Below are positions 32,016 through 54,112 of a DNA stretch of 64,000 nt, piece after piece. Source of the stretch: an uncultured Dehalococcoidia bacterium (GTDB lineage Bacteria; Chloroflexota; Dehalococcoidia; Lucifugimonadales; UBA826); assembly GCA_964500645.1 (NCBI GenBank), contig CAZCOH010000006.1:1492-65491 (forward strand), in the 5' to 3' direction. The translations under genes were made by a program, and so were the position numbers. Position 1 is the first letter of the stretch. The number at the start of each line of letters is the position of its first letter. The notes under the pieces were generated by a model. It had not been told where the DNA came from. It ran no database searches and saw only the letters and a program-made list of their open reading frames with translations.

Positions 32016-33191
32016 CTACGCGTATGGGTCCGCTGCATCTCTCAAGCCATCTCCCATAAAGTTCATACACAATATAGAAACCAGGACAAACAATCCAGGT
32101 ATCATTAACCAGCCTGCTTTTGCTACCGCTTGTAACGTTTGTGCTTCGAACAACAGTACTCCCCAGCTTATTGCAGGGGGCCTGATGCCTAGTCCAAGGA
32201 AACTAAGAGCGGTTTCTGAAAGTATGATGGCAGGGATCGCTAAAGTTGTGGAAGCTATGATATGGCTGTAGAAAGAGGGAAGCATCTGCCTAAATATGAT
32301 CCTTATTTCACTACTGCCATACAGTCTCGACGCAACTACAAAATCTTCTTCTCTCATGGACAAAAATCGGCCTCTGACTTCTCTGGCGAGCCTGGTCCAT
32401 TCTATTAGAGATATGATTATTGTTATTGCAAAGTATATTTTCAATACTCCCCAGTCGGCCGGTACAGCTGCTGCTAACGCCAACCATAGGGGTATGGTAG
32501 GGATCGCACGCAGAAATTCGATTATCCTTTGTATAATCAGGTCGGTCATACCTCCCCGAAGGCCAGAAAGACCTCCAAGTAGAATGCCCAAGAACATCAT
32601 CAAAACCACGGCAACTAGTCCGATGGACATTGAGACTCTGGTTCCGTACATAATACGGGACCAGACATCCCTTCCCATTCGGTCTGAGCCGAAGATATAT
32701 AGTGGTATGGGATCTTTTTTCCCAACCTCGTAATCGAGACCAAACAAGTGAGTGTTTGATGAAATCAATCCAAACCATTTGTATTCGTGTCCATCAGTGA
32801 AGTATTTGATGGTACGTTTTACTTCTTTGTCAGCCTTCCATTCCATTGCCCTTGTTTCCAGGTTGCGTTCTCCCTTAAGGCCATAGACATAAGGTAACTG
32901 GGGCTTCCAACCATCAAAGAAATGTATTCCTTGCGGCGGTATATAGGCTCTTGTAGATTCTTCTGACCTGGGTTCGTGTACTGACAAAAATTCAGGCATC
33001 AGACAAATCAGGTAGAAGAACACAACCACAGAAGTCGCGATGAGTGCTAACTTATGTCGTCTAAACCTCCACCACATTAATTGCCATTGACCGGCGACAA
33101 ACAATTCCGATTCTTCTAGATTGGTAGGAGTAGGACGAGCTTCCTCAAGACTGTCTGCTAATGATGACAGTGGTTTTTGGTCTTCTGACAT
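32016..33191 (-). CDS. ABC transporter permease (Dpp/Opp C-type)
   Basis: BPD_transp_1 core with GTRVSMSIGLVAVVL and SRLYGSSEIRIIFRQMLP. ATG 33191 (MSEDQKP) lies 1 nt after the upstream stop. The track start 33230 overlaps the upstream gene. Confidence 0.85.
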   Translation of the reverse strand: MSEDQKPLSSLADSLEEARPTPTNLEESELFVAGQWQLMWWRFRRHKLALIATSVVVFFYLICLMPEFLSVHEPRSEESTRAYIPPQGIHFFDGWKPQLPYVYGLKGERNLETRAMEWKADKEVKRTIKYFTDGHEYKWFGLISSNTHLFGLDYEVGKKDPIPLYIFGSDRMGRDVWSRIMYGTRVSMSIGLVAVVLMMFLGILLGGLSGLRGGMTDLIIQRIIEFLRAIPTIPLWLALAAAVPADWGVLKIYFAITIIISLIEWTRLAREVRGRFLSMREEDFVVASRLYGSSEIRIIFRQMLPSFYSHIIASTTLAIPAIILSETALSFLGLGIRPPAISWGVLLFEAQTLQAVAKAGWLMIPGLFVLVSILCMNFMGDGLRDAADPYA

Positions 33192-33192
33192 A

Positions 33193-34179
33193 TTAGCCCC
33201 CCATCCTGATTCTAGGGTCCATGAGGGCAAGTATGATGTCAGAAATTAAGACTCCTAGAAGCGTTAACACCGTGAGTATCATAACGATAGAACCCGCCAT
33301 GTACATGTCCTGTGATAGAAGAGCTCTGAGTAGTAATGGTCCTAAAGTAGGAAGACTCATTACTGTTGCGACTATGAGGCTACCTGATATCAACCTTGGT
33401 AGTTCAAGCCCTGCGGAACTGACAAACGGGTTGAGGGCCAACCTAACAGGATATTTCAGTAGAACCTTCCATTCCGGCAAACCTTTAGCTCTGGCAGTTT
33501 CAACGTATGGTCTCGACAATTCATCAAGAAGATTAGCTCTCACAATTCTTGTGAAGCGAGCCGCTCCGTCTGTGCCGAGTATAATCATCGGCACCCAAAT
33601 GTGTTTCAACATGTCTATGAATTTTCCGAATGACCAGCCTTGATCCATGTATTCTGATGAGAAAAGTCCAGTAATTCTCCATCCGAACCAGTCATAAACA
33701 AAAAACATTATAACCAGGGCAAGTAGGAAATTCGGTGTGCCAACCCCAAAATATGATAGTACGGTGAAAAAATAGTCAATGAAGGAATATTGTTTCCAGG
33801 CGGAGATTATGCCTATTGGGATCGCCATAGTCCATGTGAATACAATGGTGAACAATCCAAGGGCCAACGTCATAGCTAATCTATCATTAACCAGATCAGT
33901 AACAGGCCTGCGGAATTCAATGGAAAGACCTAGATCCCAGGTAAAGAATCCACTAGCCCATTTGTAATATTGAACGTATATGGGCTGATCAAGACCATAT
34001 CGTTTTTTGAGTGCCAGTATTTCGGATTCGTCAACCATCTCTCCGGCTGACGCGAGTTGGGCGATATAGTCGGTTAAAAAGTCTCCAGGTGGCGCCTGGA
34101 TAATGGCAAATGACACTATCGACATTACGAATAGCATCGGTATAAAAAGACCTAACCTGCGTACTAAAAATTGAAGCAT
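33193..34179 (-). CDS. ABC transporter permease (Dpp/Opp B-type)
   Basis: N-terminal MLQFLVRRLGLFIPMLFV..SFAII and YVETARAKGLPEWKVLLKY. Confidence 0.85.
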   Translation of the reverse strand: MLQFLVRRLGLFIPMLFVMSIVSFAIIQAPPGDFLTDYIAQLASAGEMVDESEILALKKRYGLDQPIYVQYYKWASGFFTWDLGLSIEFRRPVTDLVNDRLAMTLALGLFTIVFTWTMAIPIGIISAWKQYSFIDYFFTVLSYFGVGTPNFLLALVIMFFVYDWFGWRITGLFSSEYMDQGWSFGKFIDMLKHIWVPMIILGTDGAARFTRIVRANLLDELSRPYVETARAKGLPEWKVLLKYPVRLALNPFVSSAGLELPRLISGSLIVATVMSLPTLGPLLLRALLSQDMYMAGSIVMILTVLTLLGVLISDIILALMDPRIRMGG

Positions 34180-34328: not shown

Positions 34329-36470
34329 TTACTTGCTAAAGTACCACTGCTCTGGGAAGCCTGTGTTAGGCGTTCTTAGAGGCCAGTCATTTCCAGCTTT
34401 GTCAGGAACGTTGTTAAGGTTACTGTTTTTCACAATTACACCCTGGACCATAGGACTAAGTCCAACGATACCAATAGCGTATTGCTCCTGAACAAGCTCT
34501 GTATATAGTTCTCGAGCTAGAGCATCTGCCTCTTCTTTCGGAAGAGTTGCACCTAAGTTGTGCTTCATGCTCCATTCGTAGTGACCTCCCAGGCCGACCG
34601 AGTATGGGTCTAGACCTGATTCACCGCCAGTTCGTACCCACTCGCAAACGAGGGGAGCGGGGTAGCAGTCCGGATGTCCGAGGGCTACAGTTCTCTTAGT
34701 TGTGCTAGTGAATGTCCAGCCAGAAGTGTCTTCATTCCAGACAAACACTGCTAGTTCGTTAGCAGCTTTCTTGGAGAACACAAGACTTCTGGTCATTACC
34801 TGTAAGTCTGTACCAAGTCCAACGTCGTTCCAATATCCTGATACCTGCTCAGCAATGTCTGGCCAAGGACCAAACGCAGCAGTCACCCCAATTGTGATGA
34901 CAATCTTCTCTCCGTTGAGGGTCCTGTATCCGTCTCCGTCCTTGTCTGGTAGCACGCTGTCTAGCAATGCATTGGCTGCATCCACGTCTTGTGCGACCCT
35001 GAGCTGGGCGATTGCATCACCAGGATAGTGATCGTGGCCAGGTCCAGGTACTCCTTGCCGTGGTATGCCTAGTCCAAGGAAGCTTATGTCATTAATTGCG
35101 TCTCTATCGATAGCAAGAGACATAGCTTGTCGTACTTCAGCGATTCTAAGAGCTTCTCCTGTTACACCGGGGTAGCTCATGTTGGGCCAGAATGCTACGT
35201 CAGCTCCATTAGATGATTCCCAGGTTATGAGGTCATATCCACCTTTTTCCTCGCCTTCTTTTAAGACGGGGTAGTCAGGTAACTGGATGTGTCGACCCTG
35301 GAAGTCAATTTCACCCTGGAGGGCTTTTAATCCCCCGACTGATGGGCTTTCAACAAGTGTATAAGTGTGTGCATCTATGTAAGGAAGCTGATTACCGTCT
35401 GGGTCTACTGCCCAGAAGTATGGGTTCCTTTCAGCTCTCACAACAGCGTCACCTAACACAGATTCAAAGTGCCATGGTGTGATTGCAGGCTTGTCCGGGT
35501 TGTTGTTGTAAGACGCTTTGTCGTCATATAACTGCAACCAGTCATCGAAACCTTCGGACTTTGCAAGTTCACCCACATTAGGGTTGGTGTCGATGTGGAA
35601 TTGCCTCATGTAATGCTCAGGTGCAAACGTTGTATTTCTAGTAGAGCCGTAGCAGGCTTCGTCAGCCTGAGCAACTGTTTCTAGGAATAGATAGTTTGGA
35701 TTCGGAAAGATGAACTTGATTGTCGTATCGTCCACCTTAGCCATAGAGCCGAACCCGTCTCCGCTCGCGAGGAATGGAGGTGGGCCTGCTGTCAGGTCTG
35801 TATTCATGATGACGTCATTGTATTGCCACATGAAGTCATCAGCGTTGAAGTCATCACCATCGGACCACTTCATGCCTTCCCTGAGGAAGAATGTCCATTC
35901 ACTTCCATCGTCGTTAACTTCCCATCCTCTGGCAACAGACGGAACGAACGAGAATCCATCCGTAGCGTACCTGACCAGAGAAGCCCTAGAAAGCCTGAAG
36001 AAGTTACATCCGTCAGCTGGGCCGATGTAGAAACGTCGGAGTGTTCCTCCATAGCTTCCAGTTTGACCAAACGTTGGTATCACCATAGGCTGCTCGGGTA
36101 ACCTCTCTTCAACAGGAGGAAGAACTCCACCCTGGACGAGCTGTGTCAATTGAGGAGCTTCGCCATACGAGGAGAAAACCTTCTCTACTTCAACTACAAC
36201 AGGTACTTCAACGACCCTATCTACGGGTACTTGAACCTGCTCAATTTTAATTACTTCTTTCTCGACTACGACCTCTTTGACGACTTCAATTACTTCGCCT
36301 TTTTCGGTCACAATCTTTTCGACAACCTTCTCTACTGGGACTTCTTTTACAACTTCTTTCTCGACCACAACTTCCTTTTCGACCGTTACTATCTCGGTCT
36401 CTCCGGAACATGCGACGAAAAAGGCTCCCAGGAAGATAGCCAAGACTATGGACATCAATCCTTTTCGCAT
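34329..36470 (-). CDS. ABC transporter substrate-binding lipoprotein (family 5, peptide/nickel type) with a long repetitive linker
   Basis: MRKGLMSIVLAIFLGAFFVAC has a lipobox-like signal, and AGGAG lies 9 nt upstream of ATG 36470. An EKEVV-rich linker of about 80 aa follows, then an SBP_bac_5-like body. The track start 36506 is probably too long. Confidence 0.85.
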   Translation of the reverse strand: MRKGLMSIVLAIFLGAFFVACSGETEIVTVEKEVVVEKEVVKEVPVEKVVEKIVTEKGEVIEVVKEVVVEKEVIKIEQVQVPVDRVVEVPVVVEVEKVFSSYGEAPQLTQLVQGGVLPPVEERLPEQPMVIPTFGQTGSYGGTLRRFYIGPADGCNFFRLSRASLVRYATDGFSFVPSVARGWEVNDDGSEWTFFLREGMKWSDGDDFNADDFMWQYNDVIMNTDLTAGPPPFLASGDGFGSMAKVDDTTIKFIFPNPNYLFLETVAQADEACYGSTRNTTFAPEHYMRQFHIDTNPNVGELAKSEGFDDWLQLYDDKASYNNNPDKPAITPWHFESVLGDAVVRAERNPYFWAVDPDGNQLPYIDAHTYTLVESPSVGGLKALQGEIDFQGRHIQLPDYPVLKEGEEKGGYDLITWESSNGADVAFWPNMSYPGVTGEALRIAEVRQAMSLAIDRDAINDISFLGLGIPRQGVPGPGHDHYPGDAIAQLRVAQDVDAANALLDSVLPDKDGDGYRTLNGEKIVITIGVTAAFGPWPDIAEQVSGYWNDVGLGTDLQVMTRSLVFSKKAANELAVFVWNEDTSGWTFTSTTKRTVALGHPDCYPAPLVCEWVRTGGESGLDPYSVGLGGHYEWSMKHNLGATLPKEEADALARELYTELVQEQYAIGIVGLSPMVQGVIVKNSNLNNVPDKAGNDWPLRTPNTGFPEQWYFSK
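36161..36401 (-). repeat. Low-complexity coding repeat (V/E/K heptad-like EKEVVVEKEVVKEV...) forming the SBP tether
   Basis: ETEIVTVEKEVVVEKEVVKEVPVEKVVEKIVTEKGEVIEVVKEVVVEKEVIKIEQVQVPVDRVVEVPVVVEVEK. Confidence 0.7.
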
Positions 36471-36620
36471 ACAATTTCTCCTCATATTAAACGGCTTTAA
36501 CGCCACATTGCATGGCGCATTGGATGGGGATGTTAAAGAATTATGATTGAATATGTCAATAGGGAAGTTTAATTACCGACATAAAAATCATTACTTTAGT
36601 CAGGATTTTATAATCAACAA

Positions 36621-39600
36621 ATGTTCTCATTTTTAAAAAGAAGATACCAAGAGTACTGGAAGACTCATCTGTTGGTATTTTTGTTGCTTACACTAATCTC
36701 TGGTTTACTGTCATCAATTCCCTACCAGAGAGAAATTTTCTCTCGAGTAGGTTTTACGGATCAGGTGAAAGGGGCAGGGGTTCAGGCCGATTCAATTTTA
36801 TTGAGTGCGAATCATGTGCCTTTTGGTGCCGTTGACTCCTACAGTCCACCCGAGGACCTTCACAAGCTTTTGTCAGGAACCCTTCAGGATTTATACAGTG
36901 ATGTTAGGACCTCTATTAAGAGTGAGAACTGGTATCTTGATCCGCAGGCTACTTTTCCCGATCAACCCTCTTTAGTAATGAGAGTCGCTCAGACTGATGA
37001 AGAACTCAAAATCAAGCTTGAAAATATATATGGATACAAGGAGGTTTATTCGCTCATTGATGGAGCATTTCCAGGTCATGAAGTTTTGAGAGACGATAGC
37101 CTTTATGCGTTGCCTAGGGTTGAGGTCGCTCTAGTGGTCAATAATGAGGACATTAATGCACCGAAAATTGAAATAGGTGACACTTTCATTGTAGACAGTC
37201 TTGCCGATGTACAAGAAGCCCGAGTGGTCTCTGGCACAAGTGAATATCTTAGGATTAGTCTTGAGAGTCTCAAATCGAGATCTAACAAGGCCTATCAAAA
37301 ATTGGAAGAACTTGGAATTAGACCTTTAGATGAAGATGGCAACCTGGTCAGTTTTATAAGCATAGTACAAGGCTTGAAATTCTCTAATGCGGAGATAGGA
37401 GACTACAGGACGATTTTCGGCCGCAGGAGAGGGGAATTCTTTTTTAATTTAATGTCTAATGATTCGGAGAATGTTTTTGAATTGGCAGAGTCTTTGGATT
37501 CCAAGGTTCCTAAATCTAACCAAGCATCTGCAAATTACCTCGGTAATCGGGACAGCATTAGGGTCGACGTGGTGGGAATTGTGAGTGTGTCTGACTCTTT
37601 GGAAATCGGATTTGTTAATGGCAAAAATGTGAATGTTCAGCACCGGTTCTTGATTGACCCTGTTGCAGCGGAAAAATTGCCAAAGCGGTATGTATTACCA
37701 AGTCGCTACAAATATAACTTTTCAACGGTTTACACCTCGGATCAAATTGACCTGTTCACAGACGTTGTAGATGGCAGATTCCCTCAGGAATCTGATCTAG
37801 ATAATGTTGCAGGAAGTCCTTACGAATGCGCAATTGGTAAAGAGATTTCCAAGTACACGCAAAAAAATGTAGGAGATTCTCTTTATATAACCCCCAACGT
37901 AGATGGAGTTTATGGAATTTATTGTACGGTCACAGGGATATTGCAAATGAAGGTTGGGGCTTCAACTTTGCGCTTCCCCGAGTTGATGGAGATCTTAGAG
38001 TTAGATGACCAGGTTAGTACACCTGTGGTGCCTATTCTTATGAGAGAAAAAGATTTCTCAAAAGCCATAAATACTCATTTTTTAGAAAGAAAGGGGAAAA
38101 TATTCTGGAATGTTAATCTGGATCTTGATAAAGCGGCCTATGTGAGTCCAGCTCAGACTATTGACAGAATTAGAGAATTGGAATTAGGACTGGCAGAATT
38201 ATACTCTGGAGCTAATGTGATTTCTGGACTACGACAGATGGCATTGGAGTCTGATTCTCGTTCAGGTACTGCATTTGCTCCAATTATTATGGTTTCGATA
38301 TCTCTGGTAACCTCTTTTTTAGCCGTTACTACTATGGTTTTATGGAATGTTCTTCGAGAAAACATTAGAGATATTAGAGTTATGCGGCAAAGAGGGTTTG
38401 GGGTTCTTAGGCTGGTACGTTTTTATTCTCTAGAGTTTTTGGTATTCCTTCCAATAACTGCTGTGTTTGGCTTATTTGTTGGTATGGGTCTTTCGCTCTT
38501 TACAATTTTAACTATTGATACCGGTGATTTTGGACAGTGGCTTGTAGTCCTTAGGGCTGGATTTCTGCAATCCCTAGGATTAATTGGTGTGTTTTTTAGT
38601 TGTTATTTCATAGCTCTCATCCTGGTTGTGTTTTTTCTTTGTTCAAAAATGAATATTATTCGGTCGTCCCGGACTTCTTCAGGTGGGATAAGAAACATTA
38701 AGGCTTATATGGCGGCGGGAGCTCTGGCGAGTGTCGTCGCTGTCCTACTTGGTCTGCTGCTAAAAGAAGCCCTTTTAAACACAAATGCTGATGGTGTTGA
38801 TTTCAGAAAAGACTCAATCATATTTGCTGCGCCTTCATTACTATTGATTCTAGTCTCATTTCTAGGATTGATTTTGAGTAAAATGATTTACACGGGCATT
38901 CACGCGCTTTTCTATATGGTTAATGGGTTTTCCCCTTTTCACTCTGCTTTAATAAGATTATCTAGAGATGTTACTCATGGAGGGTTGCCCGTTTTTATGT
39001 TGGCCCTTCTGACCGGAATCGTTACCTTTACAGTAGTGATTTCAAATGGATTAGATTCTTACTTTCTTCGTACATCTGAAAATATCGTAGGGTCAGATGT
39101 GAGGGTTAAAGGTTTTAAGAGTACTGAATTAGTGGAAACCAATTCTATCGCTGTCCAACAAATTGATTTTGTTAAAAGTGTTTCGGCCTTGCACGTGTCA
39201 GATGCAAATGTGCAGGATGGCAATACCAAGATATATGACCCTAAAGAACAATTTGAGTTTGTGTCTGTTGATCCAGAATCCTTCAAGGAAGTTTTGAATA
39301 ATAATCAAAAGTCTGATATGTCAGAGATAAGCAAGGCTTTAAATCAGACAATTTCTAAAACCATTGCATTGACGGAAAAGGATCAAGTTTTTCATTTCGT
39401 CAGTAGATTATCTGAGAATTCCCCACCTATTGATGCTTCCTTGGTAATTAAAAATAAACTGACAAACGACTATCACTTTGTCGAAATAGGGAAGATATAT
39501 GAGAAAAAATGGGTACATTTATCTACGAAAATCCCTCAGGGCTTTTTGGACGGTAATCATTTCATAGCTGGTTTGAAAGTTGATTTTCTTACTCGAATAG

Positions 39601-40640
39601 CTGGAATAGAAGGAAGTATTGAAATAAAAGAAATGCGCCTAAGTTCTAAGGAAGACAATTTAGGAGGTTCTTATTTTCTTGAAGGTTTCTCACGTTGGGT
39701 ACCATTGTCCGAGAACAATTTATTGGAAACAAGTAAATTACAAGATATATCAGGGCAAAACGACTATGTTACATACAGATTCCTTAAGGGAAGAGAAGAA
39801 GCGGTGGCGGGTCTGTATTTTTCAGGCCATGAAAAACGCATTTCAGTTTTGTCGTCCAGATCATTTTTAGAATCTCATCCTAATCTTGGGAATAACTTCA
39901 CAATAAATTTAGAAGGAAGAAATTTAAATGTGAATAGAATAGGTACGATCGCTAAAATGCCGGGGACGTCGGACTCATCAAGAGGGTTTATATTTGCGAA
40001 CATAGAAGTTGTGGGATCACATTTAAATTCATGGGATACAAATAATTTCAGAACTTTCGGTCCTAATGAAATTGTTATAAAACTCGTAAAAGACACTGTT
40101 TACAACAAGGAAATCATTGATGGTGCATTGTCTTCAGGGACAGTTGTTATCACGAAAAATGACGTTATAAGGTCGCTTTCTCCATTCGCAGAGCTTCAAT
40201 TAAAAGGTTGGAAATTTCAAGGGTTAATGGCAATCATAATCAGTTTTTTCGTTGTTTGCGTTTTTAGTTTGCTCTATGAGATAAGGGATTTTAATCAAAA
40301 CAAGGTCAGTGTTTTCGTAATGCATTCTCTGGGTTTCAATAAGATCTCAGCTGTTTTACAAAAAATTATAGAAGGGATATTTAACGGGATTTTGGGGATA
40401 TCATTTGGAGTCGTATCAGCTATGTTACTCACTCATATTACTCTGCCTTCAATAGTCAAAGGATTAGGGATTCCTGTCGATACTGGGTTGCTTTTTGATG
40501 GGGTATATAGTTCTTGGATCAACATCGCTGTAATAACTTTTTGCTTGGTATTTTTGTCTCTTACGGTTCGCGCAACTTTCACTTATTTAAAAATGAGGAA
40601 TCTGCATACGTCTTCTTTCAGGTTTGATTTAGAGGCCTAG
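36621..40640 (+). CDS. Giant ABC-type permease with two FtsX/MacB-like modules (1339 aa)
   Basis: An N-terminal TM is followed by an extracytoplasmic region of about 520 aa. FtsX block 1 is VLRENIRDIRVMRQRGFGVLRLVRFYSLEFLVF, and extra TMs follow. A second large loop of about 400 aa is followed by the C-terminal FtsX block FVMHSLGFNKISAVLQKIIEGIFNGILG. Confidence 0.7.
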   Translation: MFSFLKRRYQEYWKTHLLVFLLLTLISGLLSSIPYQREIFSRVGFTDQVKGAGVQADSILLSANHVPFGAVDSYSPPEDLHKLLSGTLQDLYSDVRTSIKSENWYLDPQATFPDQPSLVMRVAQTDEELKIKLENIYGYKEVYSLIDGAFPGHEVLRDDSLYALPRVEVALVVNNEDINAPKIEIGDTFIVDSLADVQEARVVSGTSEYLRISLESLKSRSNKAYQKLEELGIRPLDEDGNLVSFISIVQGLKFSNAEIGDYRTIFGRRRGEFFFNLMSNDSENVFELAESLDSKVPKSNQASANYLGNRDSIRVDVVGIVSVSDSLEIGFVNGKNVNVQHRFLIDPVAAEKLPKRYVLPSRYKYNFSTVYTSDQIDLFTDVVDGRFPQESDLDNVAGSPYECAIGKEISKYTQKNVGDSLYITPNVDGVYGIYCTVTGILQMKVGASTLRFPELMEILELDDQVSTPVVPILMREKDFSKAINTHFLERKGKIFWNVNLDLDKAAYVSPAQTIDRIRELELGLAELYSGANVISGLRQMALESDSRSGTAFAPIIMVSISLVTSFLAVTTMVLWNVLRENIRDIRVMRQRGFGVLRLVRFYSLEFLVFLPITAVFGLFVGMGLSLFTILTIDTGDFGQWLVVLRAGFLQSLGLIGVFFSCYFIALILVVFFLCSKMNIIRSSRTSSGGIRNIKAYMAAGALASVVAVLLGLLLKEALLNTNADGVDFRKDSIIFAAPSLLLILVSFLGLILSKMIYTGIHALFYMVNGFSPFHSALIRLSRDVTHGGLPVFMLALLTGIVTFTVVISNGLDSYFLRTSENIVGSDVRVKGFKSTELVETNSIAVQQIDFVKSVSALHVSDANVQDGNTKIYDPKEQFEFVSVDPESFKEVLNNNQKSDMSEISKALNQTISKTIALTEKDQVFHFVSRLSENSPPIDASLVIKNKLTNDYHFVEIGKIYEKKWVHLSTKIPQGFLDGNHFIAGLKVDFLTRIAGIEGSIEIKEMRLSSKEDNLGGSYFLEGFSRWVPLSENNLLETSKLQDISGQNDYVTYRFLKGREEAVAGLYFSGHEKRISVLSSRSFLESHPNLGNNFTINLEGRNLNVNRIGTIAKMPGTSDSSRGFIFANIEVVGSHLNSWDTNNFRTFGPNEIVIKLVKDTVYNKEIIDGALSSGTVVITKNDVIRSLSPFAELQLKGWKFQGLMAIIISFFVVCVFSLLYEIRDFNQNKVSVFVMHSLGFNKISAVLQKIIEGIFNGILGISFGVVSAMLLTHITLPSIVKGLGIPVDTGLLFDGVYSSWINIAVITFCLVFLSLTVRATFTYLKMRNLHTSSFRFDLEA

Positions 40641-40644
40641 GGAA

Positions 40645-43600
40645 GTGTCTAAGATGTTCCCCCTTTTTCCCCTGGTCCTAAAATGGACACGCTTCAATGG
40701 GGGCCTGGTTGCATTGATTGCCATTGGGCTTATGGTGTCAGCTGTTTTATCTGCAACTGCAGTAGTTCTTTGGGGCACTTTAAGGGAGGCATCACTTTCA
40801 GAGTTACTGGATACTTCTGGACAAGATAATCCTAACGTTGCATTGATGGTTACTGAGGTTCCGACTAATTTACTTTTTTTTAGTGATCTCAAGAATGAAA
40901 TACTCTCTATAATCGATTCAAAATCGGAGGGTTTGGTTCAACAGAAATCATGGGCTGTTCGCTCTGAAACACTGAATTTCAAGGAGGAATCTTCAAGCAA
41001 GATCAAAGATCGAAGATCATTTCTTTTCTCTTCGGATTCTGATCTTGGTGAAGAACACCTTAGTCTTATTGGCAAGTATCCCTCATCGGGATTCGTTGAA
41101 ATTGAAGATGGGATTTCGATTGAAGGTCTAATCAGTAATGGCGACGCTGTGAAATTTGCGATTTCAGTGGACGACGAAATTTTTCTTGAAACGCAATCTG
41201 GGGCCATGATTCAAGTAAAGGTTTCAGGAATTTACCGGTCCGTCGAATCAACGGATCCGTTTTGGGTTATGTATGACGAAAACCTTATGTCCGGTAATAC
41301 TGAAACTGTCGCCACTTTACCGTTCTTGATTTCCAAAGACACTTATTTCAATGTTGGTTCTAACGAAAAATTTGTATTTAAGTCATCTTATGTTTCCAAG
41401 ATGATGATATCGAGAGATGTGATTCGCGCAGAAACATTTGAACTGTTCGTCGATGAGATAATTTCCATCCACAACGAATTAACCATTAAATACCCAACTG
41501 CCAGCCTTAAAACTTCACTTCTTAATGTCCTTAATGATTTCAGAGGAAAGTTGATTGATTCTAAGGTGTCAATGTCTACTTTGCTTTTTTTGTTCGTTGT
41601 TTTTACCTTCATATATGTGTTTTCGGTTACGAACATTTTGTATGAACGTCAATCTGCTTACTATGATCTTCTGAGATTAAGGGGTTCAGGGCGTTTTATG
41701 CCTATGCTAGTTATCTCTTTGCCCATCTTATTGAGTTGCTTTATTGCGGCAGTATTTGGTCCCATTGGGTCTTATGTAATGTTTAAAATTGTGGCTTTTA
41801 TATTGGGATTGGGGGATCTTTTCAGTGATATTCCTATCGGTTTATATTTTACCCAACAGACTTGGTTGGCGAGTGGAAGTGCGGCGCTTTTTGGGTTCCT
41901 GATACTGGCCATACGGCTGATTTCTAAAGGATTTTTGGAGGATAGATCTGTTTCAATTTTTGACAGAGCTGAGAATAGTCGTGTTTTGAGTATTTTATTT
42001 ACTCCATCAAATGCAATTATTTTTGTACTTCTTTTAGCATTTTGGACAAGTGGTGGATTGGATAATCCTATATGGACCTCGTTGGGTGGAGATTCTAATT
42101 TGGGAGGAGTTTTAGGGGTTTTTGTCCCAATTATTTTTTTGATAATTGCTAGCGTATTATCTTCACGACTGTTGCCAATAATTTTATTGCCGATTGATTT
42201 GATTTTTTCCAAAAATCTTAGCCCCTCTATTGCTCTTGCACTGAAGTTTTTGTTAAGAGCTCCCGGAAATTATTCCGGGGTTTTATTAATGGTTTCGGTG
42301 ACGGTTGCAATATCGGTTGTTTCAGTCAGTTTTATCAAGACACTCGAAGTAAATGAAAAGGAACAGATAAGCTATCAAGTTGGTAGTGACGTTAGATTAG
42401 AGGGAGTAGTGCTCGAGGAAAGCAGATTTTCAAGTTCAGCTGAACAGAATTATACGGATTTACCTTGGATATATGATGTGACACCGGTGTATAGAGAGAC
42501 CGCTTATGACGTTGATAATCCATCGTTAAATCCATATGAAGTGATGGCAATAGATATAGAAAAAACTGACGTTGTTTCATTAATTCGGGAAGATTTTTTC
42601 GAAGGCAGCTTAGAATCGATTAAAGATTTATTGAAGGCCAGCAGGGAATCAGGATTGGAATTGCCTGACGACGGCAGGACGATAGCTTTGAACATAAAGC
42701 CTGATAAGCCTATGCCACATGTTCAGGTCCATGTAAAACTTATCGATGCAGCGGGTAGATTCTATACTCACAGAGTTGGGTGGTTGGGCATGTCAGACTA
42801 TCTCGGTAATTTACGGGAACCTGAATGGATGACATTGTACTCACCGTTGAAGCCACTTGCGAAGGAATACAGGCCTTATAGCCTGATGTCAATCGGATTC
42901 AGTAGTGACTCTCAAGTTGAAGGTATGGAGAGAGGCGGAATATCTCTGGAATCTATATCCTCCACGGTGGTGAATAAGTTGCCCGATGGAGGAAGTAGCG
43001 TTGATACCATAGTTGTTGAAGATTTTTCGGATGAGCATCAGTGGATTGAAATGTTGGGGTCAACACCTCCTGAAGCTGTCATTGTGTCTGAAGATCAACT
43101 AGAAAAGTCATTATATTTTTCATGGCCTAGAATGGGTATTTATCAGACCCAAGGCGTTCGACATTCGGCCAAATTAGGTAGCGTACCAGCTTTGATAAGC
43201 AGGAATATGACACAGGCACAAGATTATCAGGTTGGAGATACTTTTCTGGCGAAATTAGAAGGGACTATTGTGGACTTTAAAGTTATGGGGATATTAAATT
43301 ACTTCCCTACTGTAAATACTAATTTTGATGATCTTGTCTTGGTTGATTTGGATACTTTGAGATTCCATTTGAATCTAGATCCAATAGCGAATTCTGGAAA
43401 TATTAGTGAAATGTGGATCGATGTAGATGAAACAGAAATTAGAGACGATATTCCGATCAATTCTTTGAAATATAAGCCTTTTGAAACTCAATATTTATAT
43501 GATCAAGGCCAAATGACAGCTGGTTTTGCACAAGATCCATTAAGGACAGCTGGATGGAGAATTTTGTTTACCGTTTCACTGATATCTCTAGCATTCCTTA

Positions 43601-43986
43601 CGACCTTATATTTTTGGACTCGAACTGTAAACATTTGTAAATTGAGGCTTAGCCAATCTGGGGCCTTAGAAAATCTTGGGATGACTAAAAAGTCGATCAA
43701 TTTAATCCAATGGGTTGAATCTATCACTGTACTTTTAATCGGTTCATTGTTTGGATTGTGGATCGGTGGATTTATCGGTCAATTAATCATGCCGGTTTTA
43801 GGCAAACACGAAAATGGACAGACAATCATGCCACCGTTTCAATTTGTTTACTCCTGGGGTCCGGTTTTAGTTTTGATAGTGTTTCTTGTTGTTTTTTGTT
43901 CTCTTTCTCTTGTCGTAGCGCATAGGTTCTACGCTAGATATTCGCCGGCTGAAACATTGAGGTCATCGTCAGAAATCCAACACTAG
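40645..43986 (+). CDS. Giant ABC-type permease with two FtsX/MacB-like modules (1113 aa), paralogous architecture
   Basis: FtsX blocks are YERQSAYYDLLRLRGSGRFMPMLVISLPILL and LENLGMTKKSINLIQWVESITVLLIGSLFG. It starts 4 nt after the upstream stop (GTG 40645, or ATG 40654). Confidence 0.7.
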   Translation: MSKMFPLFPLVLKWTRFNGGLVALIAIGLMVSAVLSATAVVLWGTLREASLSELLDTSGQDNPNVALMVTEVPTNLLFFSDLKNEILSIIDSKSEGLVQQKSWAVRSETLNFKEESSSKIKDRRSFLFSSDSDLGEEHLSLIGKYPSSGFVEIEDGISIEGLISNGDAVKFAISVDDEIFLETQSGAMIQVKVSGIYRSVESTDPFWVMYDENLMSGNTETVATLPFLISKDTYFNVGSNEKFVFKSSYVSKMMISRDVIRAETFELFVDEIISIHNELTIKYPTASLKTSLLNVLNDFRGKLIDSKVSMSTLLFLFVVFTFIYVFSVTNILYERQSAYYDLLRLRGSGRFMPMLVISLPILLSCFIAAVFGPIGSYVMFKIVAFILGLGDLFSDIPIGLYFTQQTWLASGSAALFGFLILAIRLISKGFLEDRSVSIFDRAENSRVLSILFTPSNAIIFVLLLAFWTSGGLDNPIWTSLGGDSNLGGVLGVFVPIIFLIIASVLSSRLLPIILLPIDLIFSKNLSPSIALALKFLLRAPGNYSGVLLMVSVTVAISVVSVSFIKTLEVNEKEQISYQVGSDVRLEGVVLEESRFSSSAEQNYTDLPWIYDVTPVYRETAYDVDNPSLNPYEVMAIDIEKTDVVSLIREDFFEGSLESIKDLLKASRESGLELPDDGRTIALNIKPDKPMPHVQVHVKLIDAAGRFYTHRVGWLGMSDYLGNLREPEWMTLYSPLKPLAKEYRPYSLMSIGFSSDSQVEGMERGGISLESISSTVVNKLPDGGSSVDTIVVEDFSDEHQWIEMLGSTPPEAVIVSEDQLEKSLYFSWPRMGIYQTQGVRHSAKLGSVPALISRNMTQAQDYQVGDTFLAKLEGTIVDFKVMGILNYFPTVNTNFDDLVLVDLDTLRFHLNLDPIANSGNISEMWIDVDETEIRDDIPINSLKYKPFETQYLYDQGQMTAGFAQDPLRTAGWRILFTVSLISLAFLTTLYFWTRTVNICKLRLSQSGALENLGMTKKSINLIQWVESITVLLIGSLFGLWIGGFIGQLIMPVLGKHENGQTIMPPFQFVYSWGPVLVLIVFLVVFCSLSLVVAHRFYARYSPAETLRSSSEIQH

Positions 43987-44011: not shown

Positions 44012-45328
44012 ATGAAATATGCTTTGGTAGGAACTGGATCACGTTCAGAACTTTTTATATCGGCGCTCACGAATAAATACGGAGCTAACCATGATCTGGT
44101 CGGTATATGTGATACGAATCCCCAGAGAATCCGATATTATCAAGATTTTATAGCTCGTCAAAAATTCAATAGAGAAACTCCGGGGTTTTTGGCACAGGAT
44201 TTTGACGATATGATTTTAACTACCCGTCCTGATTTTGTGATAGTTACGACTGTAGATGCTCTACACCACGAATACATAATTCGATCTTTGCGATTGGGGT
44301 GTAATGTGATAACCGAAAAACCTATGACGACTTCCGGGGCTAACTGCAGGGAGATTATAAAAGCTGTTGACGAGACAGGGTTGGACGTCAAGGTTGCTTT
44401 TAATTATAGATGGGGTAGTGGGGTGAGTAGGGTAAAAGAGCTTCTTCAAGACTCCACTATAGGCCCTATTCACCATGTGAGCCTTCAATATTTACTCGAC
44501 ACCGATCACGGAGCAGATTACTTCAGAAGATGGCATCGGAGTCGAGAAATGTCTGGGGGACTCATTATTCACAAAGCTACACATCATTTCGACTTGGTAA
44601 ACTGGTGGATAGATTCGGTTCCTTCAACGGTCTATGGGGCCGGTAAACTAGCCTTTTATGGAAACAACAGTGGTCCATCAGAAATATACGGAGAAGACAG
44701 AAATTATGATGACGGTAAAGAGACTTCTAATCCATTCAACATAGATTTAGCGTCTTCAAACAAATTAGATGGGCTGTACTTGAAGGCTCAACGACATGAT
44801 GGATATAGAAGGGATCAAGATGTTTTTAGTGAAGGGATAAGTATTGAAGATACCATGAGTTTAATAGTCAAATATAGAAGTGGAGTTCATTTAAGTTATT
44901 CGTTGGTCGCGTATTCATCTATGGAAGGATTTGTTGTGACATTTCATGGAGATAGAGGTCGACTCCACTATGAAGAGATACATCGCCAAAGAACTCGTAT
45001 AGATAAAGCAGGTCGGGCAATCGATACTGATAATGATCAATGGTCATCTAAAATAACCGTACAGAAAATTTTTGAGCCTGCGGCTGAGGAAATCGTGGAA
45101 TCTTCGGAAGGAGGTCATGGGGGAGCTGATCCGCAAATGCTCGATTATCTTTTTGCTGACTCTAAGGTTGATGATCATTTAGGTAGGAATGCCGGACATC
45201 AACAGGGAGCTGCGTCGATGTTAATTGGTGATGCAGCGAATAAATCTTTCCAGGATGGCCGAGAACATGCTATAGGAGATATATGCCCCGAGTTAGGCAC
45301 TAGCGTGCGTCTATCTGAACTAGTTTAA
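44012..45328 (+). CDS. Gfo/Idh/MocA-family oxidoreductase
   Basis: N-terminal Rossmann MKYALVGTGSRS, the EKP motif (VITEKPM) and a C-terminal alpha/beta domain. Confidence 0.8.
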   Translation: MKYALVGTGSRSELFISALTNKYGANHDLVGICDTNPQRIRYYQDFIARQKFNRETPGFLAQDFDDMILTTRPDFVIVTTVDALHHEYIIRSLRLGCNVITEKPMTTSGANCREIIKAVDETGLDVKVAFNYRWGSGVSRVKELLQDSTIGPIHHVSLQYLLDTDHGADYFRRWHRSREMSGGLIIHKATHHFDLVNWWIDSVPSTVYGAGKLAFYGNNSGPSEIYGEDRNYDDGKETSNPFNIDLASSNKLDGLYLKAQRHDGYRRDQDVFSEGISIEDTMSLIVKYRSGVHLSYSLVAYSSMEGFVVTFHGDRGRLHYEEIHRQRTRIDKAGRAIDTDNDQWSSKITVQKIFEPAAEEIVESSEGGHGGADPQMLDYLFADSKVDDHLGRNAGHQQGAASMLIGDAANKSFQDGREHAIGDICPELGTSVRLSELV

Positions 45329-45349: not shown

Positions 45350-46807
45350 TTAACGGACTCTGTTAATTGCTTTCTTTTTAATAGAGGTCAGCATTCCTCT
45401 GAAGATAACTGCGTGAAGGGGATATAGCATTATCCAGTATAAGCACCCGAAAATAGTATTAGTATGGAATGAAGCTGTTTGTGTAAGTTTGGTTTGATTT
45501 GCAGTTTGATCCAACGTGAATGATAGTGTTGCTTTTCCTGGTAGTCTCATCTCCGCCGTTAGTTCTACCATAGCGAGGTCAATGACTTTGGAAATCCTCC
45601 ACCAGTCAAGCGTGTCACCGACGACGAACTTGTCGCTAAACATCCTAGTTCTTCTCATGCCTACTCCCCCAAGTACCAAGTCGATCCAACCTCGTATTTT
45701 CCACAGATAATTGGCGAAATACCATCCGTTTCGCCCTCCAATATTATTCAAGGTTTTGAAAATTTCCTTTTTGGTGGCCGCTAGTTCGACGTTCCTGTGA
45801 TCTTCGAATTTGTATTTATAAATAATTTCTGGTTTATTAGAGCCTTTACCACCCGAAGATAAAGCGTCAAACCATCGACTGTGACCTGTATGTTTTTCAT
45901 CAGATTTAATTGCGTATTTTATGGCTTCCCTGTATGAGATAGGATTTATATTGAAGAGGTTTTGTCCCTCTCGATCAGTAACTATGCTGTCACTGGTGAG
46001 GCTGTCTATAAGCTTTCTTCCCGCACGTGCATATGCGGGCGTCACGAGGCCTAACCAGAGACTTGATAATCTTGGGGTAAGAACCGGTACGGATATCATG
46101 GCTCTTTTGTACCCAGCTTGTCTGCCAAATTCCTTCATCAATTCTTTATAAGAAATTTGATCTGGGCCACCTATTTGTATTATTCGGTCTGTCTCCATGA
46201 CTAGCTTTATTGATTGGGCGAGATATTCAATGACATCATCTACGCCAATTGGTTGTGAAAGGGAACTTACCCATTTAGGAGTTATCATTGCAGGCAATCT
46301 TTTGACCAAACTTTGTATTATTTCGAAAGAAAGCCCTCCTGATCCAATTATTATTGAGGCTTGGAATTCTAAACAAGGTATGTCCGACGATCTCAATACG
46401 TTACCGACCTGCATTCTGCTATCTAAGTGTTGAGATAGAACATCTTCCCCAGATGCTAACCCTCCTAGATAAACGATTTTCTTCACCTTGTTCGCTACAC
46501 ACGCCTCTAGAAAATTCTTAGCGCATATCAATTCTTTTTCTCGGAAATCCTTACCAGAATTTAAAGAATGTACTAAATAATAGGCAACGTCTACGCCTTC
46601 AAAATGATTGTTAACTGTTTTCTTTTCTAACAGGTCGCATTTCCTGATATCTAAGTCAAGGAAGCTATTTTTATTCATAAGGTATTCTGGATTTCGGGCG
46701 ATACACCTGACGTTAATTGACTCTTTTGACAACCTTACTAGCAGCCTTGAACCTATATAACCAGTTGCACCCGTTAATAGAACCGTTTTTAGATGTTGAG
46801 TTTCCAT
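45350..46807 (-). CDS. NAD(P)-binding SDR (NmrA-like) fused to a DUF2867-like C-terminal domain
   Basis: VLLTGATGYIGSRLL Rossmann motif. The C-terminal 170 aa (WYFANYLWKIRGWIDLVLGGVGMRR...) matches my recollection of DUF2867. Confidence 0.65.
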   Translation of the reverse strand: METQHLKTVLLTGATGYIGSRLLVRLSKESINVRCIARNPEYLMNKNSFLDLDIRKCDLLEKKTVNNHFEGVDVAYYLVHSLNSGKDFREKELICAKNFLEACVANKVKKIVYLGGLASGEDVLSQHLDSRMQVGNVLRSSDIPCLEFQASIIIGSGGLSFEIIQSLVKRLPAMITPKWVSSLSQPIGVDDVIEYLAQSIKLVMETDRIIQIGGPDQISYKELMKEFGRQAGYKRAMISVPVLTPRLSSLWLGLVTPAYARAGRKLIDSLTSDSIVTDREGQNLFNINPISYREAIKYAIKSDEKHTGHSRWFDALSSGGKGSNKPEIIYKYKFEDHRNVELAATKKEIFKTLNNIGGRNGWYFANYLWKIRGWIDLVLGGVGMRRTRMFSDKFVVGDTLDWWRISKVIDLAMVELTAEMRLPGKATLSFTLDQTANQTKLTQTASFHTNTIFGCLYWIMLYPLHAVIFRGMLTSIKKKAINRVR

Positions 46808-46812
46808 TTTGA

Positions 46813-48225
46813 CTATTTTAGTCCCTTTTTATATTCAAATAAGGCCTTTTTTCTTGCTTCATTTAAATCCACAACGGGATTTGGGTATAGATCATCTACA
46901 ACCCTTTTACTTTTCCCGTTTGATGATCCGCGGCCTTGGTATTGCCAAGGTTCATGAATGGCCTCCATTGGCGTGCTGGATAACTCGGGTATCCATTTCT
47001 TTATGTAGCAGCCTTTTGGATCAAACTTTTTTGCTTGAATCGTCGGATTGAAAATCCTGAAATATGGTGCTGAATTTAAGCCACATCCAGTTACCCATTG
47101 CCAGTTAAATGAATTAGCAGCGAGGTCGAAATCAACTAAATAATCTTTGAAGTGATTAGCTCCATGTGTCCAATGAATTAATAGATGCTTCACCAAAAAA
47201 GAGGCACATATCATACGTGCTCTATTATCAATATTGCCGGTGAGGAGTAATTTCCTCATGGAGGCATCCACTATCGGATATCCAGTCATTCCATTCTTCC
47301 ACAGTTCTAGCTTTGTTTGATCTTCACTCCAGTTTATGTATTCAAATCTTTTGTCGATAGAGACAGTGTCCATATTAGGATTCAACTTCATGCAGTGGCG
47401 AGCGAACAGTCTCCAGCCTATTCCACGCTTTATATTTTGAATATGAGGGTATTCCTGGTTGTCGGCAAACGCATAAATTTCTTTTAAAATTTTTAATGGT
47501 TCTATTGCCCCAGCGCTTATACAGGATGACAAATCGGACCTAAAACTTGTTTCTAAAGAGATTCCTTCCTCGGACTTCAAAGGTATTTCTGAACGAAGGG
47601 AATTATTAAGATATTGTACGCCGCCAGGTTCGCAGCTTTTATTGCATGAAGTTTCGTGATTGTTCTTAAAAGAAACTTCAGTTTCTTTTAAGAAGCTAGT
47701 AAGTTTGCAGGTAATGTTTTTATTTTGGTGGTGGGGTTTTTGGGATACCCAATTTTTGAGGATAAGGGATTCCAATTGATGCCAAAAGCTTTTAAATGTT
47801 TTAAACGGTCTGTCTAAGCCTTGAATTAGAATTAATTCTGAGTTTTCTTCTACGTGTGATTGTATGCCCTCTTTAGACAAGTTTAGGCTTAGGCGATTTT
47901 CTTCATTGCGTACAAGTAAATCTGAAGATGAATTCCAATGTACGTTTCTTATTTTTCTGATTTTGCATATTTTAAGTAATGCATCCATGGAGTCGACTTC
48001 TAGGAATGAAGCCGACTCGGTGTTGCGCAACCTGTTTTCTAGACAATGTAAAGCTTTGGCCTTCCAACTTGCTACATTTTTGTTGGCATGTAGATTGAAG
48101 GGTTCATAATTCACAACTAGTATTATTTCGGATTCCTTGAACGCACTTATAATACACGGATTGTCTTCTATTCTCAGACTCTGATTTATTAGCACAATCG
48201 AGGGTATATTTGGCTCTGCCGTCAT
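46813..48225 (-). CDS. Deoxyribodipyrimidine photolyase / cryptochrome family flavoprotein
   Basis: C-terminal FAD domain TGYPIVDASMRKL...NRARMICASFLVKHLLIHW...DFDLAANSFNWQWVTGCGLNSAPYFRIFNPTIQAKKFDPKGCYIKKWIPEL. Confidence 0.85.
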   Translation of the reverse strand: MTAEPNIPSIVLINQSLRIEDNPCIISAFKESEIILVVNYEPFNLHANKNVASWKAKALHCLENRLRNTESASFLEVDSMDALLKICKIRKIRNVHWNSSSDLLVRNEENRLSLNLSKEGIQSHVEENSELILIQGLDRPFKTFKSFWHQLESLILKNWVSQKPHHQNKNITCKLTSFLKETEVSFKNNHETSCNKSCEPGGVQYLNNSLRSEIPLKSEEGISLETSFRSDLSSCISAGAIEPLKILKEIYAFADNQEYPHIQNIKRGIGWRLFARHCMKLNPNMDTVSIDKRFEYINWSEDQTKLELWKNGMTGYPIVDASMRKLLLTGNIDNRARMICASFLVKHLLIHWTHGANHFKDYLVDFDLAANSFNWQWVTGCGLNSAPYFRIFNPTIQAKKFDPKGCYIKKWIPELSSTPMEAIHEPWQYQGRGSSNGKSKRVVDDLYPNPVVDLNEARKKALFEYKKGLK

Positions 48226-49917: not shown

Positions 49918-49942
49918 TATTTAAGTTCCTTTATTTCGTTGA

Positions 49943-50993: not shown

Positions 50994-50994
50994 C

Positions 50995-53072: not shown

Positions 53073-53079
53073 AATGACT

Positions 53080-54108: not shown

Positions 54109-54112
54109 GTCG

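Follow-up and report, generated by a model that had tools for sequence, protein, structure and literature searches.

Type VII ABC systems, such as MacB, LolCDE, FtsEX, BceAB, HrtBA and YbbAP, are envelope machines that perform mechanical work outside the membrane, and to our knowledge only a few model phyla have yielded the examples that are characterised. Three described types come closest to the gene pair reported here. LolC, LolE and MacB are 4-TM half-permeases that dimerise and carry Porter-Sabre external domains, and LolC together with LolE is a case of one ATPase type serving two different permease subunits. BceB-type permeases (BceAB, PsdAB; 7TCG, 8G3A, 9UGG), found in a monoderm-type envelope, are fused 10-TM double-FtsX proteins in which TM7 and TM8 flank a large external domain; BceB has about 640 aa and one large external domain, and is encoded together with BceA and the BceRS two-component system. 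In E. coli YbbP, a protein of about 800 aa, one chain holds 10 TM segments, two FtsX four-helix units joined by TM5-6 and two external domains, and it is encoded by a single permease gene beside ybbA (homodimer) and tesA (9GE6/9GE7; PMC12646458). Its coupling helices lie between TM2/3 and TM8/9, and the ATPase:permease stoichiometry is 2:1 (PMC12646458).

A tandem pair of giant permease genes, A and B, was analysed in a 64-kb stretch of DNA (the window) from a marine Dehalococcoidia of the SAR202 type. The ORFs and the topologies derived from hydropathy are as follows.

36621..40640, plus strand: gene A (FX1 orthologue), ORF with ATG start, 1339 aa
Residues of A, N-terminal half: TM1 17-35, ECD1 36-550, TM2-4 551-673, TM5-6 696-751
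Residues of A, C-terminal half: TM7 790-808, ECD2 809-1200, TM8-10 1201-1320
40645..43986, plus strand: gene B (FX2 orthologue), ORF with GTG start, 1113 aa
Residues of B, N-terminal half: TM1 24-42, ECD1 43-307, TM2-4 308-426, TM5-6 447-504
Residues of B, C-terminal half: TM7 546-564, ECD2 565-972, TM8-10 973-1092

A Kyte-Doolittle scan gave 10 TM segments in each protein, in the order TM1, ECD1, TM2-4, TM5-6, TM7, ECD2, TM8-10, with external loops of 515 and 392 aa in A and of 265 and 408 aa in B. An earlier reading of the letters alone (the sequence-only reading) had described a tandem pair built on one 10-TM plan with large external domains, and the ORFs and hydropathy agree with it. The 4-nt spacing that it gave holds for the ORFs as listed, but becomes 13 nt if B starts at an alternative ATG at 40654, which would yield a protein of 1110 aa. 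Since this ATG is preceded by GGGAAG, and the B orthologues at 90% and 82% identity both have 1110 aa, it is probably the true start of B.

The double-FtsX plan proposed for both proteins was only partly visible to Pfam. The FtsX family (PF02687) matched whole B at residues 979-1101 (E 1e-9; 38.8 bits vs a gathering score of 25.5) and the isolated C-terminal bundle of B at E 1.3e-11. The remaining three bundles gave end-to-end FtsX profile matches below threshold (E 0.009, 0.26 and 0.11), and whole A had no match in Pfam or NCBIfam. A formal FtsX match thus exists for B and not for A, and Pfam by itself would not establish the plan. By hhalign, the A and B families were aligned over 880 columns covering both bundles (probability 99.8%, E 2.4e-30), and relatives were each found to hold two FtsX stretches (E ~1e-12). 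An AF2 model of B (pLDDT 69, pTM 0.60) was compared with the PDB by Foldseek, and the best match was YbbP (9ge6_A/9ge7_A) over the full length (E 6e-18, 1121-1132 columns), followed by BceB, LolE, MacB, HrtB and YtrF; the probability was 1.00 for YbbP, BceB, LolE, MacB and HrtB. The B profile also reached LolF, BceB, HrtB, PsdB and LolC among PDB sequences, so that the BceB type is matched both by sequence profile and by fold; the A-family profile found nothing meaningful there. Because of the A-B alignment, the match of the B model to YbbP and the two FtsX stretches in the relatives, A and B are assigned as YbbP-like 10-TM fused double-FtsX (type VII ABC) permeases. The four-helix unit (TM1, a large external domain, TM2-4 and stalk helices) is present, with A linked to it through the hhalign alignment, and the two units of a chain are joined by a TM5-TM6 hairpin (TM order 1+3, 2, 1+3). 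Long helices flank the external domains of the B model at residues 19-57, 292-345, 540-579 and 965-1010. Unlike LolC, LolE and MacB, each gene of the window already encodes a fused pseudo-dimer, yet two of them are paired.

For the roughly 900 aa of external sequence per protein, the sequence-only reading had recognised no family. This did not hold for part of it, since ECD1 of B and the ECD2 core of both proteins are Porter-Sabre periplasmic domains of the MacB/LolE type. By sequence, MacB_PCD (PF12704) gave only sub-threshold matches (A ECD1, E 1.2e-4; B ECD2, E 0.004), and the fold was borne out by structure comparison. The AF2 model of B ECD2 (pLDDT 75.7, pTM 0.73) has a core that matches the LolE periplasmic domain 5udf in Foldseek with a TM-score of 0.59-0.63 and a probability of 1.00, and the model also matches MacB 3ftj. 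The host group is not known to have a Lol pathway, and a TolC partner is not to be expected. Two further segments lie outside the Porter-Sabre core, and for these the earlier statement stands.

42655..43200, plus strand: beta-sandwich insert, ~190 aa (residues ~671-852 of B), from the AF2 ECD2 model
36726..37742, plus strand: N-terminal ~340 aa of A ECD1, residues 36-374, with no counterpart in B

The insert sits within the Porter-Sabre core of ECD2, and its equivalent aligns in A at residues ~913-1050. Against the PDB it gave weak Foldseek matches only, to the pancreatic lipase C-terminal beta-sandwich (probability 0.6-0.77). Residues 36-374 of A matched no Pfam, PDB or internal profile, and hhalign detected no significant similarity to the rest of A or to B. 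The segment is nevertheless conserved in the A clade, with 41% identity to the orthologous locus L001 vs 35% for whole A. Compared with YbbP, therefore, the window has tandem paralogues of 1113 and 1339 aa instead of a single permease gene, an additional beta-sandwich in ECD2, some 340 aa more in ECD1 of A, and no adjacent TesA-like hydrolase; compared with BceB, it has no BceA or BceRS.

The pair is not the orphan oddity that had been implied. A search with the B profile returned 15,453 matches at E<=1e-3 and 2,886 clusters (50% identity) at E<=1e-30, and the members are mostly full-length proteins of about 1,100 aa. Tandem FX1-FX2 order was found in 35 of 42 loci. By phmmer, A matched only the first gene (FX1) of other pairs and B scored best on the second (FX2), and in an NJ tree the FX2 of the window grouped with SAR202 FX2. 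Two ATPase genes lie directly 3' of FX1-FX2 in 13 loci of the genome scan, and likewise in each of the six ABCa contexts examined. These ATPases were typed as LolD/MacB/FtsE/YbbA by NCBIfam, with best scores vs LolD and MacB; in complete operons ABCa (~290-355 aa) is extended at its C-terminus, and ABCb has ~225-245 aa. In its complete form the module is an operon of four genes, FX1-FX2-ABCa-ABCb, the last two of which encode LolD-type ATPases. The layout of one permease gene and one ATPase gene (2:1) was not found: two paralogous permease genes are paired here and family-wide, and the relatives have two different ATPase genes where YbbP has one. In the literature on FtsX with SAR202 or Chloroflexi, no description of the FX1-FX2 family was found.

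ATPase-linked pairs occur in Anaerolineae, in Chloroflexia and in some of the Dehalococcoidia; one such locus (L044) is from a 'SAR202 cluster bacterium' MAG. Complete operons (e.g. L024, L030, L044, L050) share with the window pair the family, the gene order and the 10-TM plan, and their permeases of ~1,100 aa have the enlarged ECD2. The window pair differs from them in having no ATPase genes, in being far more divergent and in an A (FX1) about 240 aa longer; it is a divergent, fast-evolving member of a large uncharacterised Chloroflexota family. A pair without ATPase genes also occurs in Ca. Lucifugimonas marina JH545 (NZ_CP046146.1, at about 833,990-840,750), and no LolD-type ATPase was found within 10 kb of about 20 SAR202-type loci. 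ATPase linkage has been lost in one SAR202 subclade, to which the window pair belongs; a metagenome scan for further members of the window clade gave two short fragments only.

The missing local ATPase, in turn, is real in the window and in the orthologous loci L001 and L004, none of which has a MacB/LolD-type ATPase. An ABC-NBD HMM was run on every window ORF with 120 aa or more, and the only ABC ATPases of the 64 kb were of the DppD/DppF type; no LolD-type ATPase lies within the 36 kb upstream or 20 kb downstream of the pair in the window. A cognate ATPase just outside the locus, which the sequence-only reading had named as a refutation, was not found in the inspected part: the ~2.7 kb past the right window end holds two CoA-transferases and no ATPase. 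The neighbouring genes of interest are the following.

26450-27490 and 27519-28529, minus strand: DppD/DppF-type ATPases (ABC_tran and oligo_HPY)
44012..45328, plus strand: Gfo/Idh/MocA-family oxidoreductase (Pfam), syntenic in L001 and L004

The Dpp/Opp assignment of the two ATPases in the sequence-only reading is supported by their domains and by the cognate permeases in the same block (permeases 32016-34179, binding protein 34329-36506; Opp/Dpp permease and SBP_bac_5 matches). The start of A lies 114 nt from the divergently transcribed binding-protein gene, and the block DppDF / ArsP-FG-GAP / DppCB-SBP / A / B / Gfo-type oxidoreductase is kept in L004 and in L001, where A is only 36% identical. 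From this neighbourhood it might be supposed that the pair is powered by the adjacent Dpp/Opp ATPases, or is an accessory of the Dpp importer through the shared divergent promoter region. We regard this as very improbable, because DppD/F carry the oligo_HPY extension and the block supplies them with permeases of their own (DppB/C), Dpp genes do not adjoin the other ATPase-less SAR202 pairs, all linked relatives use LolD-type NBDs, and the synteny may reflect recent common ancestry of the genomes, whose neighbouring genes are 69-91% identical. Coupling of the Dpp ATPases to A and B was rejected since they have cognate permeases of their own. On the other side of the pair, the Gfo/Idh/MocA gene starts 25 nt past B with its own RBS and no terminator-like site was found between them, so it is possibly a third gene of the operon; a promoter/terminator scan gave no more sites than shuffled sequence.

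Eight other SAR202 loci show the order FX1-FX2-DrrA-type ABC-permease-DrrA-type ABC-permease, and could be taken to mean that the ATPase-less pairs have switched to DrrA/GldA-type ATPases and that the window clade has lost even those. This is very improbable: behind each DrrA-type ATPase gene comes one for a 6-TM ABC-2 permease of its own, which makes a self-complete unit, and no DrrA-type genes occur in the window, L001, L015, L016, L021 or L022. Nor is any case known to us in which ABC-2-type NBDs drive FtsX-fold permeases. DrrA coupling to the FX pairs was rejected because each of these ATPases has a cognate permease.

Identity to L001 is ~36% for A and 50% for B, compared with 69-91% for the syntenic neighbours; A and B evolve 3-4 times faster than these, in TM and external regions alike. 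Measured against the 84-90% orthologue, A has a dN/dS of 0.20 and B one of 0.15 (0.05 for neighbours), which indicates that both are real genes under purifying selection; pseudogenisation was rejected in view of values well below 1 and of long ORFs that are intact at 36-50% divergence. The fast evolution, TM regions included, would fit some loss of constraint. In B, the putative ATPase-docking loops stand out by conservation.

41623..41703, plus strand: N-terminal coupling loop of B, residues 327-353, between TM2 and TM3, ...LYERQSAYYDLLRLRGSGRF...
43618..43722, plus strand: C-terminal coupling loop of B, residues 992-1026, between TM8 and TM9, ...LRLSQSGALENLGMTKKSINLIQWVES

The N-terminal loop has 78% identity to L001 vs 50% overall (97th percentile of all windows along the protein), and the C-terminal loop 74% (96.6th percentile). 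The R-x-RG[SA] motif of the former is common to ATPase-linked relatives, and L1011, G1012 and E1025 of the latter are invariant in B-family sequences that are ~20% identical. The coupling-loop motif reads LRLRGSG or ENLG. Putative coupling loops with a motif are present in all four FtsX units of A and B. Judged by sequence conservation, the putative docking loops are less conserved in A, at the 82nd percentile vs L001 and, for the C-terminal loop, at the 45th (about the protein average). TM4, TM8 and TM10 of A show just 11-16% identity to L001, and A is the most degenerate member of its Chloroflexota family.

These features, together with the SAR202-type loci that have no LolD-type ATPase nearby and the failure of A to match FtsX significantly, might mean that in the SAR202 subclade A and B are independent of ATPases, as a passive or differently energised envelope protein (for example a surface scaffold, receptor or anchor) for which the FtsX bundles are no more than a membrane anchor, or that A is a degenerate, non-coupling partner of B. 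We consider this unlikely. Conservation in B is highest in segments that include its coupling loops, other ATPase-less SAR202 pairs are best conserved in TM helices and coupling loops, and complete modules in SAR202 MAGs could supply ATPases; moreover, no protein of the FtsX fold is known to us that functions in the absence of an NBD. Similarly doubtful is the idea that the whole SAR202 subclade does without ABC ATPases and has reused the FtsX scaffold, for example as a surface machine, passive or energised in another way, with fast-evolving giant external domains that bind envelope or environmental ligands, or, in a weaker version, that several pairs time-share one ABCa/ABCb pair.

The simplest answer to the puzzle of a mechanotransmitter that lacks its motor is that one SAR202 subclade has lost the gene linkage, since SAR202 MAGs hold complete modules and the coupling loops of B are so well conserved. 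We prefer the reading, with a probability of roughly 0.6, that A and B form a type VII ABC mechanotransmission system using ATPases whose genes lie at other sites of the genome; most likely the motor is missing from the locus only and not dispensable. A and B would be the FX1 and FX2 permease subunits of a Chloroflexota-specific system, each a YbbP-like pseudo-dimer of two FtsX four-helix units, and additional modules would extend their MacB/LolE-type Porter-Sabre external domains. In the ancestral FX1-FX2-ABCa-ABCb system, two LolD-type ATPases would dock on the coupling helices (TM2/3 and TM8/9), and the ATP-driven closure of the ATPase pair would reach the external domains by way of the long stalk helices. 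If YbbAP-TesA, LolCDE, HrtBA and BceAB are a guide, the external domains may act at the outer face of the membrane on an envelope component that is membrane-anchored or lipid-like, and extract, expel or remodel it. In the SAR202 subclade, paralogous FX1-FX2 pairs, that of the window included, would have become unlinked from ATPase genes; the window pair most likely keeps the mechanism, with ATPases that are probably the ABCa/ABCb of a complete paralogous module. The fold, the family membership, the gene order, the distribution of linked and unlinked pairs, the purifying selection and the conserved coupling loops of B are results of the analysis; we infer the use of ATPases in trans, the assembly of FX1 with FX2 and the substrate class. 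No stand-alone ABCa/ABCb pairs were found, all six contexts examined being FX-linked, and this counts against ATPases acting in trans. So do the absence of an ATPase partner in the inspected 64 kb and ~2.7 kb, the failure of A in the Pfam FtsX search, the averagely conserved C-terminal coupling loop of A and the rapid evolution of the pair. As far as we know, ATPase sharing has not been documented in type VII systems. In other ABC systems there are precedents for shared ATPases, namely MsmK (PMC4519317), multitask NBDs (PMC7658222) and MceG (PMC9947336).

The analysis newly defines a large family of Chloroflexota, especially of the abundant deep-ocean SAR202, that comprises 2,886 or more clusters (50% identity). 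It has an unusual layout of two fused double-FtsX permeases and two different ATPases, and in one subclade the paralogous pairs stand without ATPase genes beside them. Sharing of ATPases in trans, if real, would extend the multitask-ATPase principle from importers to mechanotransmission systems, and with a time-shared ABCa/ABCb pair a shared-ATPase network would be seen for the first time in a type VII ABC system. If ATPases are absent altogether, it would no longer hold that an FtsX fold requires an NBD, and this would be the first FtsX-fold system without one. More speculatively, the family may have a part in the handling of hydrophobic substrates by SAR202 cells, or in the construction or remodelling of their poorly understood envelope.

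Genes A and B, the tandem giant permease genes, were found exactly at the ORF positions that the sequence-only reading had assigned to them:

36621-40640, + strand, gene A, ORF of 1339 aa
40645-43986, + strand, gene B, ORF of 1113 aa from GTG

The reported 4-nt gap holds if B starts at this GTG, but not if it starts at ATG 40654, which is probably the true start since GGGAAG lies 8 nt before it and 1110 aa is the length of the close orthologues. The shared membrane plan was borne out by hydropathy, which gave each protein 10 TMs in the order TM1, ECD1, TM2-4, TM5-6, TM7, ECD2, TM8-10, where ECD1 and ECD2 are the large external loops (515 and 392 aa in A; 265 and 408 aa in B). The proposed double-FtsX architecture was supported by Pfam HMMs only for the C-terminal bundle of B (one FtsX match, E 1e-9). 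No Pfam or NCBIfam match was obtained for A, no similarity between A and B was found by BLASTP, and the remaining three bundles, each scanned separately, matched FtsX end-to-end at sub-threshold values (E 0.009, 0.26, 0.11). For both proteins the matter was settled by profile and structure evidence. The A-family and B-family profiles aligned over 880 columns (probability 99.8%, E 2.4e-30), the B profile reached LolF, BceB, HrtB, PsdB and LolC in the PDB, and the AF2 model of B (pLDDT 69, pTM 0.60) had E. coli YbbP as its top PDB match (E 6e-18, ~1,120 aligned columns), followed by BceB, LolE, MacB, HrtB and YtrF. Therefore, A and B both belong to the type VII ABC class, as YbbP-like permeases with two fused FtsX units.

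The earlier statement that about 900 external aa per protein match no known family was only partly upheld. MacB_PCD matched weakly at the end of A ECD1 and the end of B ECD2. When B ECD2 was modelled separately (pLDDT 75.7, pTM 0.73), the model matched the periplasmic domains of LolE, LolC and MacB (TM-score 0.63 to 5udf), and ECD2 is thus a Porter-Sabre core with an inserted beta-sandwich of ~190 aa (B residues ~671-852). B ECD1 (~230 aa, alpha/beta) has the canonical size for MacB_PCD. The start of A ECD1 (residues 36-374, ~340 aa) matched nothing, other parts of A and B included; the ECD2 insert gave only weak and unreliable matches. In FX2 (second-gene) variants of ~1470-1496 aa (L021:13212-17684; also L011, L016 and L022), ankyrin repeats and DUF6810 (E 6e-41) lie within ECD2 at residues ~750-1011, so ECD2 seems to be a place where accessory modules are variably inserted. 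It would be unusual for ankyrin repeats to lie on the external face.

Few relatives were found by word-based searches. When the B profile was used in an exhaustive HMMER search, 15,453 proteins passed E<=1e-3 and 2,886 passed E<=1e-30, and the best 150 matches were nearly all full-length (~1,100 aa). A scan of GTDB species representatives gave 39 loci, mostly from marine Dehalococcoidia, and others from Anaerolineae and Chloroflexia; Ca. Lucifugimonas marina, a cultured SAR202 member, was among the Dehalococcoidia. Two giant FtsX genes stood in tandem at nearly all of them. Since A matched solely the first gene (FX1) of other pairs and B scored higher on the second, the FX1-FX2 order is ancestral. 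Pairing is not universal, as a single FX1-like gene (~1100-1130 aa) without a second giant permease occurs at L003, L017, L018, L028 and L031, in L017 and L028 despite 9-10 kb of downstream DNA. No description of this Chloroflexota family was found in the literature.

An NBD (ABC ATPase domain) HMM was run on every ORF of at least 120 aa in the window. As the sequence-only reading had said, only Dpp/Opp-type ATPases were found, grouped with their importer genes:

26450-27490 and 27519-28529, - strand, DppD/F-type ATPases (ABC_tran + oligo_HPY)
32016-34179, strand opposite to the gene at 28751-31927, DppB/C permeases
34329-36506, - strand, SBP_bac_5 binding protein, 725 aa

The ~2.7 kb past the right end of the window contained two CoA-transferases and no ATPase. 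Coupling of A/B to the adjacent Dpp ATPases is very unlikely, because these have their own cognate permease. A gene on the opposite strand (28751-31927, +) splits the importer genes. Its 1058-aa product joins an ArsP_1-type permease (residues ~84-366) to FG-GAP/VCBS repeats, with an ASPIC/UnbV domain at the C-terminus, and is kept in the orthologous locus L001 at 75% identity. In the binding protein, SBP_bac_5 begins only at about residue 187, after an N-terminal extension of ~170-185 aa.

In 13 genome-scan loci (L023-25, L029-30, L032-33, L035-38, L040-41) two ATPase genes come immediately after the pair, ABCa (~290-355 aa) and ABCb (~225-265 aa), both typed LolD/MacB/FtsE/YbbA-like by NCBIfam. 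All six context look-ups from an ABCa search fell within such an FX1-FX2-ABCa-ABCb operon; one was in a MAG named 'SAR202 cluster bacterium', and the surroundings of several loci were typical of SAR202. The SAR202-type loci of the genome scan had no LolD-type ATPase within 10 kb, and at L001, L015, L016, L021, L022 and the window no ATPase of any type was present in the available downstream DNA. At eight SAR202-type loci, two DrrA/GldA-type ATPases lie downstream, each with its own 6-TM ABC-2 permease directly after:

L002, L005, L007, L008 (e.g. L008:13094-16651), L009, L012, L019, L027: DrrA-type ABC, ABC-2 permease, DrrA-type ABC, ABC-2 permease after the FX pair

That the two transporter classes recur side by side suggests that they are functionally linked. 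Each such set is self-contained, and coupling of A/B to DrrA-type ATPases is very unlikely, because these have their own cognate permeases.

In a crude NJ distance tree with long branches, window-clade FX2 was sister to FX2 of other ATPase-less SAR202 pairs, and the complete modules formed a separate clade. In the ATPase-linked lineages (L023-25, L030/33, L032/36/38/29, L044, L046), FX1 and FX2 of one lineage grouped together instead of with their positional counterparts, a hint that duplication or gene conversion took place repeatedly, with long-branch artefacts possible. At least three MAGs carried two or more unlinked loci. The simplest history would be that a complete module was duplicated, ATPase linkage was lost once and the unlinked paralogues expanded. 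ABCa of complete modules carries a conserved C-terminal extension of ~60 aa (motif EY.[VIL][VL]D.AGR.QLP):

L024:8867-9745, L030:10464-11345, L044:10001-10939, L046:10001-10888: ABCa with C-terminal extension

Its weak MraZ/AbrB-like match (E 0.0033) suggests that one of the two NBDs bears a swapped-hairpin domain for regulation or dimerisation.

The DppDF / ArsP-FG-GAP / DppCB-SBP / A / B / Gfo-type oxidoreductase block is syntenic in L001 and L004. Identity to L001 was 69-91% for the neighbours, 36% for A and 50% for B, and dN/dS against L004 was 0.20 for A, 0.15 for B and 0.05-0.06 for flanking genes. These values mark A and B as genuine genes that purifying selection maintains, with constraint 3-4 times weaker than on the neighbouring genes. 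Divergence is not limited to the external domains, since TM4, TM8 and TM10 of A are only 11-16% identical to L001. Further downstream, ~11.5 kb (window ~45350-56900) is missing from L001, where the Gfo-type gene runs directly to the homologue of 56915-57454:

~45350-56900: DUF2867/NAD-binding protein, photolyase, DICT-domain protein, amine oxidase, two CMAS-type methyltransferases, AhpC-TSA protein

Together with a B12-binding/HTH regulator gene just past it (~59.1-60.0 kb), this block has the look of a gene cluster that responds to light or UV.

In YbbP, the ATPase docks on coupling helices between TM2/3 and TM8/9 (PMC12646458). In B, the equivalent loops share 78% and 74% identity with L001 versus 50% overall (~97th percentile). 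The motif skeleton R-x-RG[SA] and LR[ST][LM]G-like is common to ATPase-linked and unlinked clades, and its key residues are invariant among B relatives of ~20% identity. This conservation speaks for continued binding of a cytoplasmic partner, at least by B. The A loops are 47% (82nd percentile) and 35% (45th percentile) identical, and A may be a partly degenerate subunit. The main rival explanation, that the system is genuinely ATPase-independent or that A is degenerate, is considered rather unlikely. The best-supported reading, with a probability of roughly 0.6, is that A and B work by mechanotransmission as a type VII ABC system and would use ATPases from genes located elsewhere in the genome, the most plausible lender being a complete paralogous module. 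We know of no documented shared ATPases in type VII systems. Sharing of ABC ATPases has been documented in importers and Mce systems (PMC4519317, PMC7658222, PMC9947336).

By analogy with YbbAP-TesA, LolCDE, HrtBA and BceAB, action on a lipid-like envelope component is favoured; such a membrane-anchored component would be extracted or remodelled, and the extra modules of the external domains would bind the substrate or a partner. For the missing ATPase the mundane explanation, a gene elsewhere in the genome, is the likeliest. What is new in A and B is that YbbP-like permeases are paired and enlarged, and in one SAR202 subclade have lost linkage to their ATPase genes. Specialist attention is merited by how large the family is, by its arrangement of two permeases and two ATPases, and by how fast the window clade has diverged.
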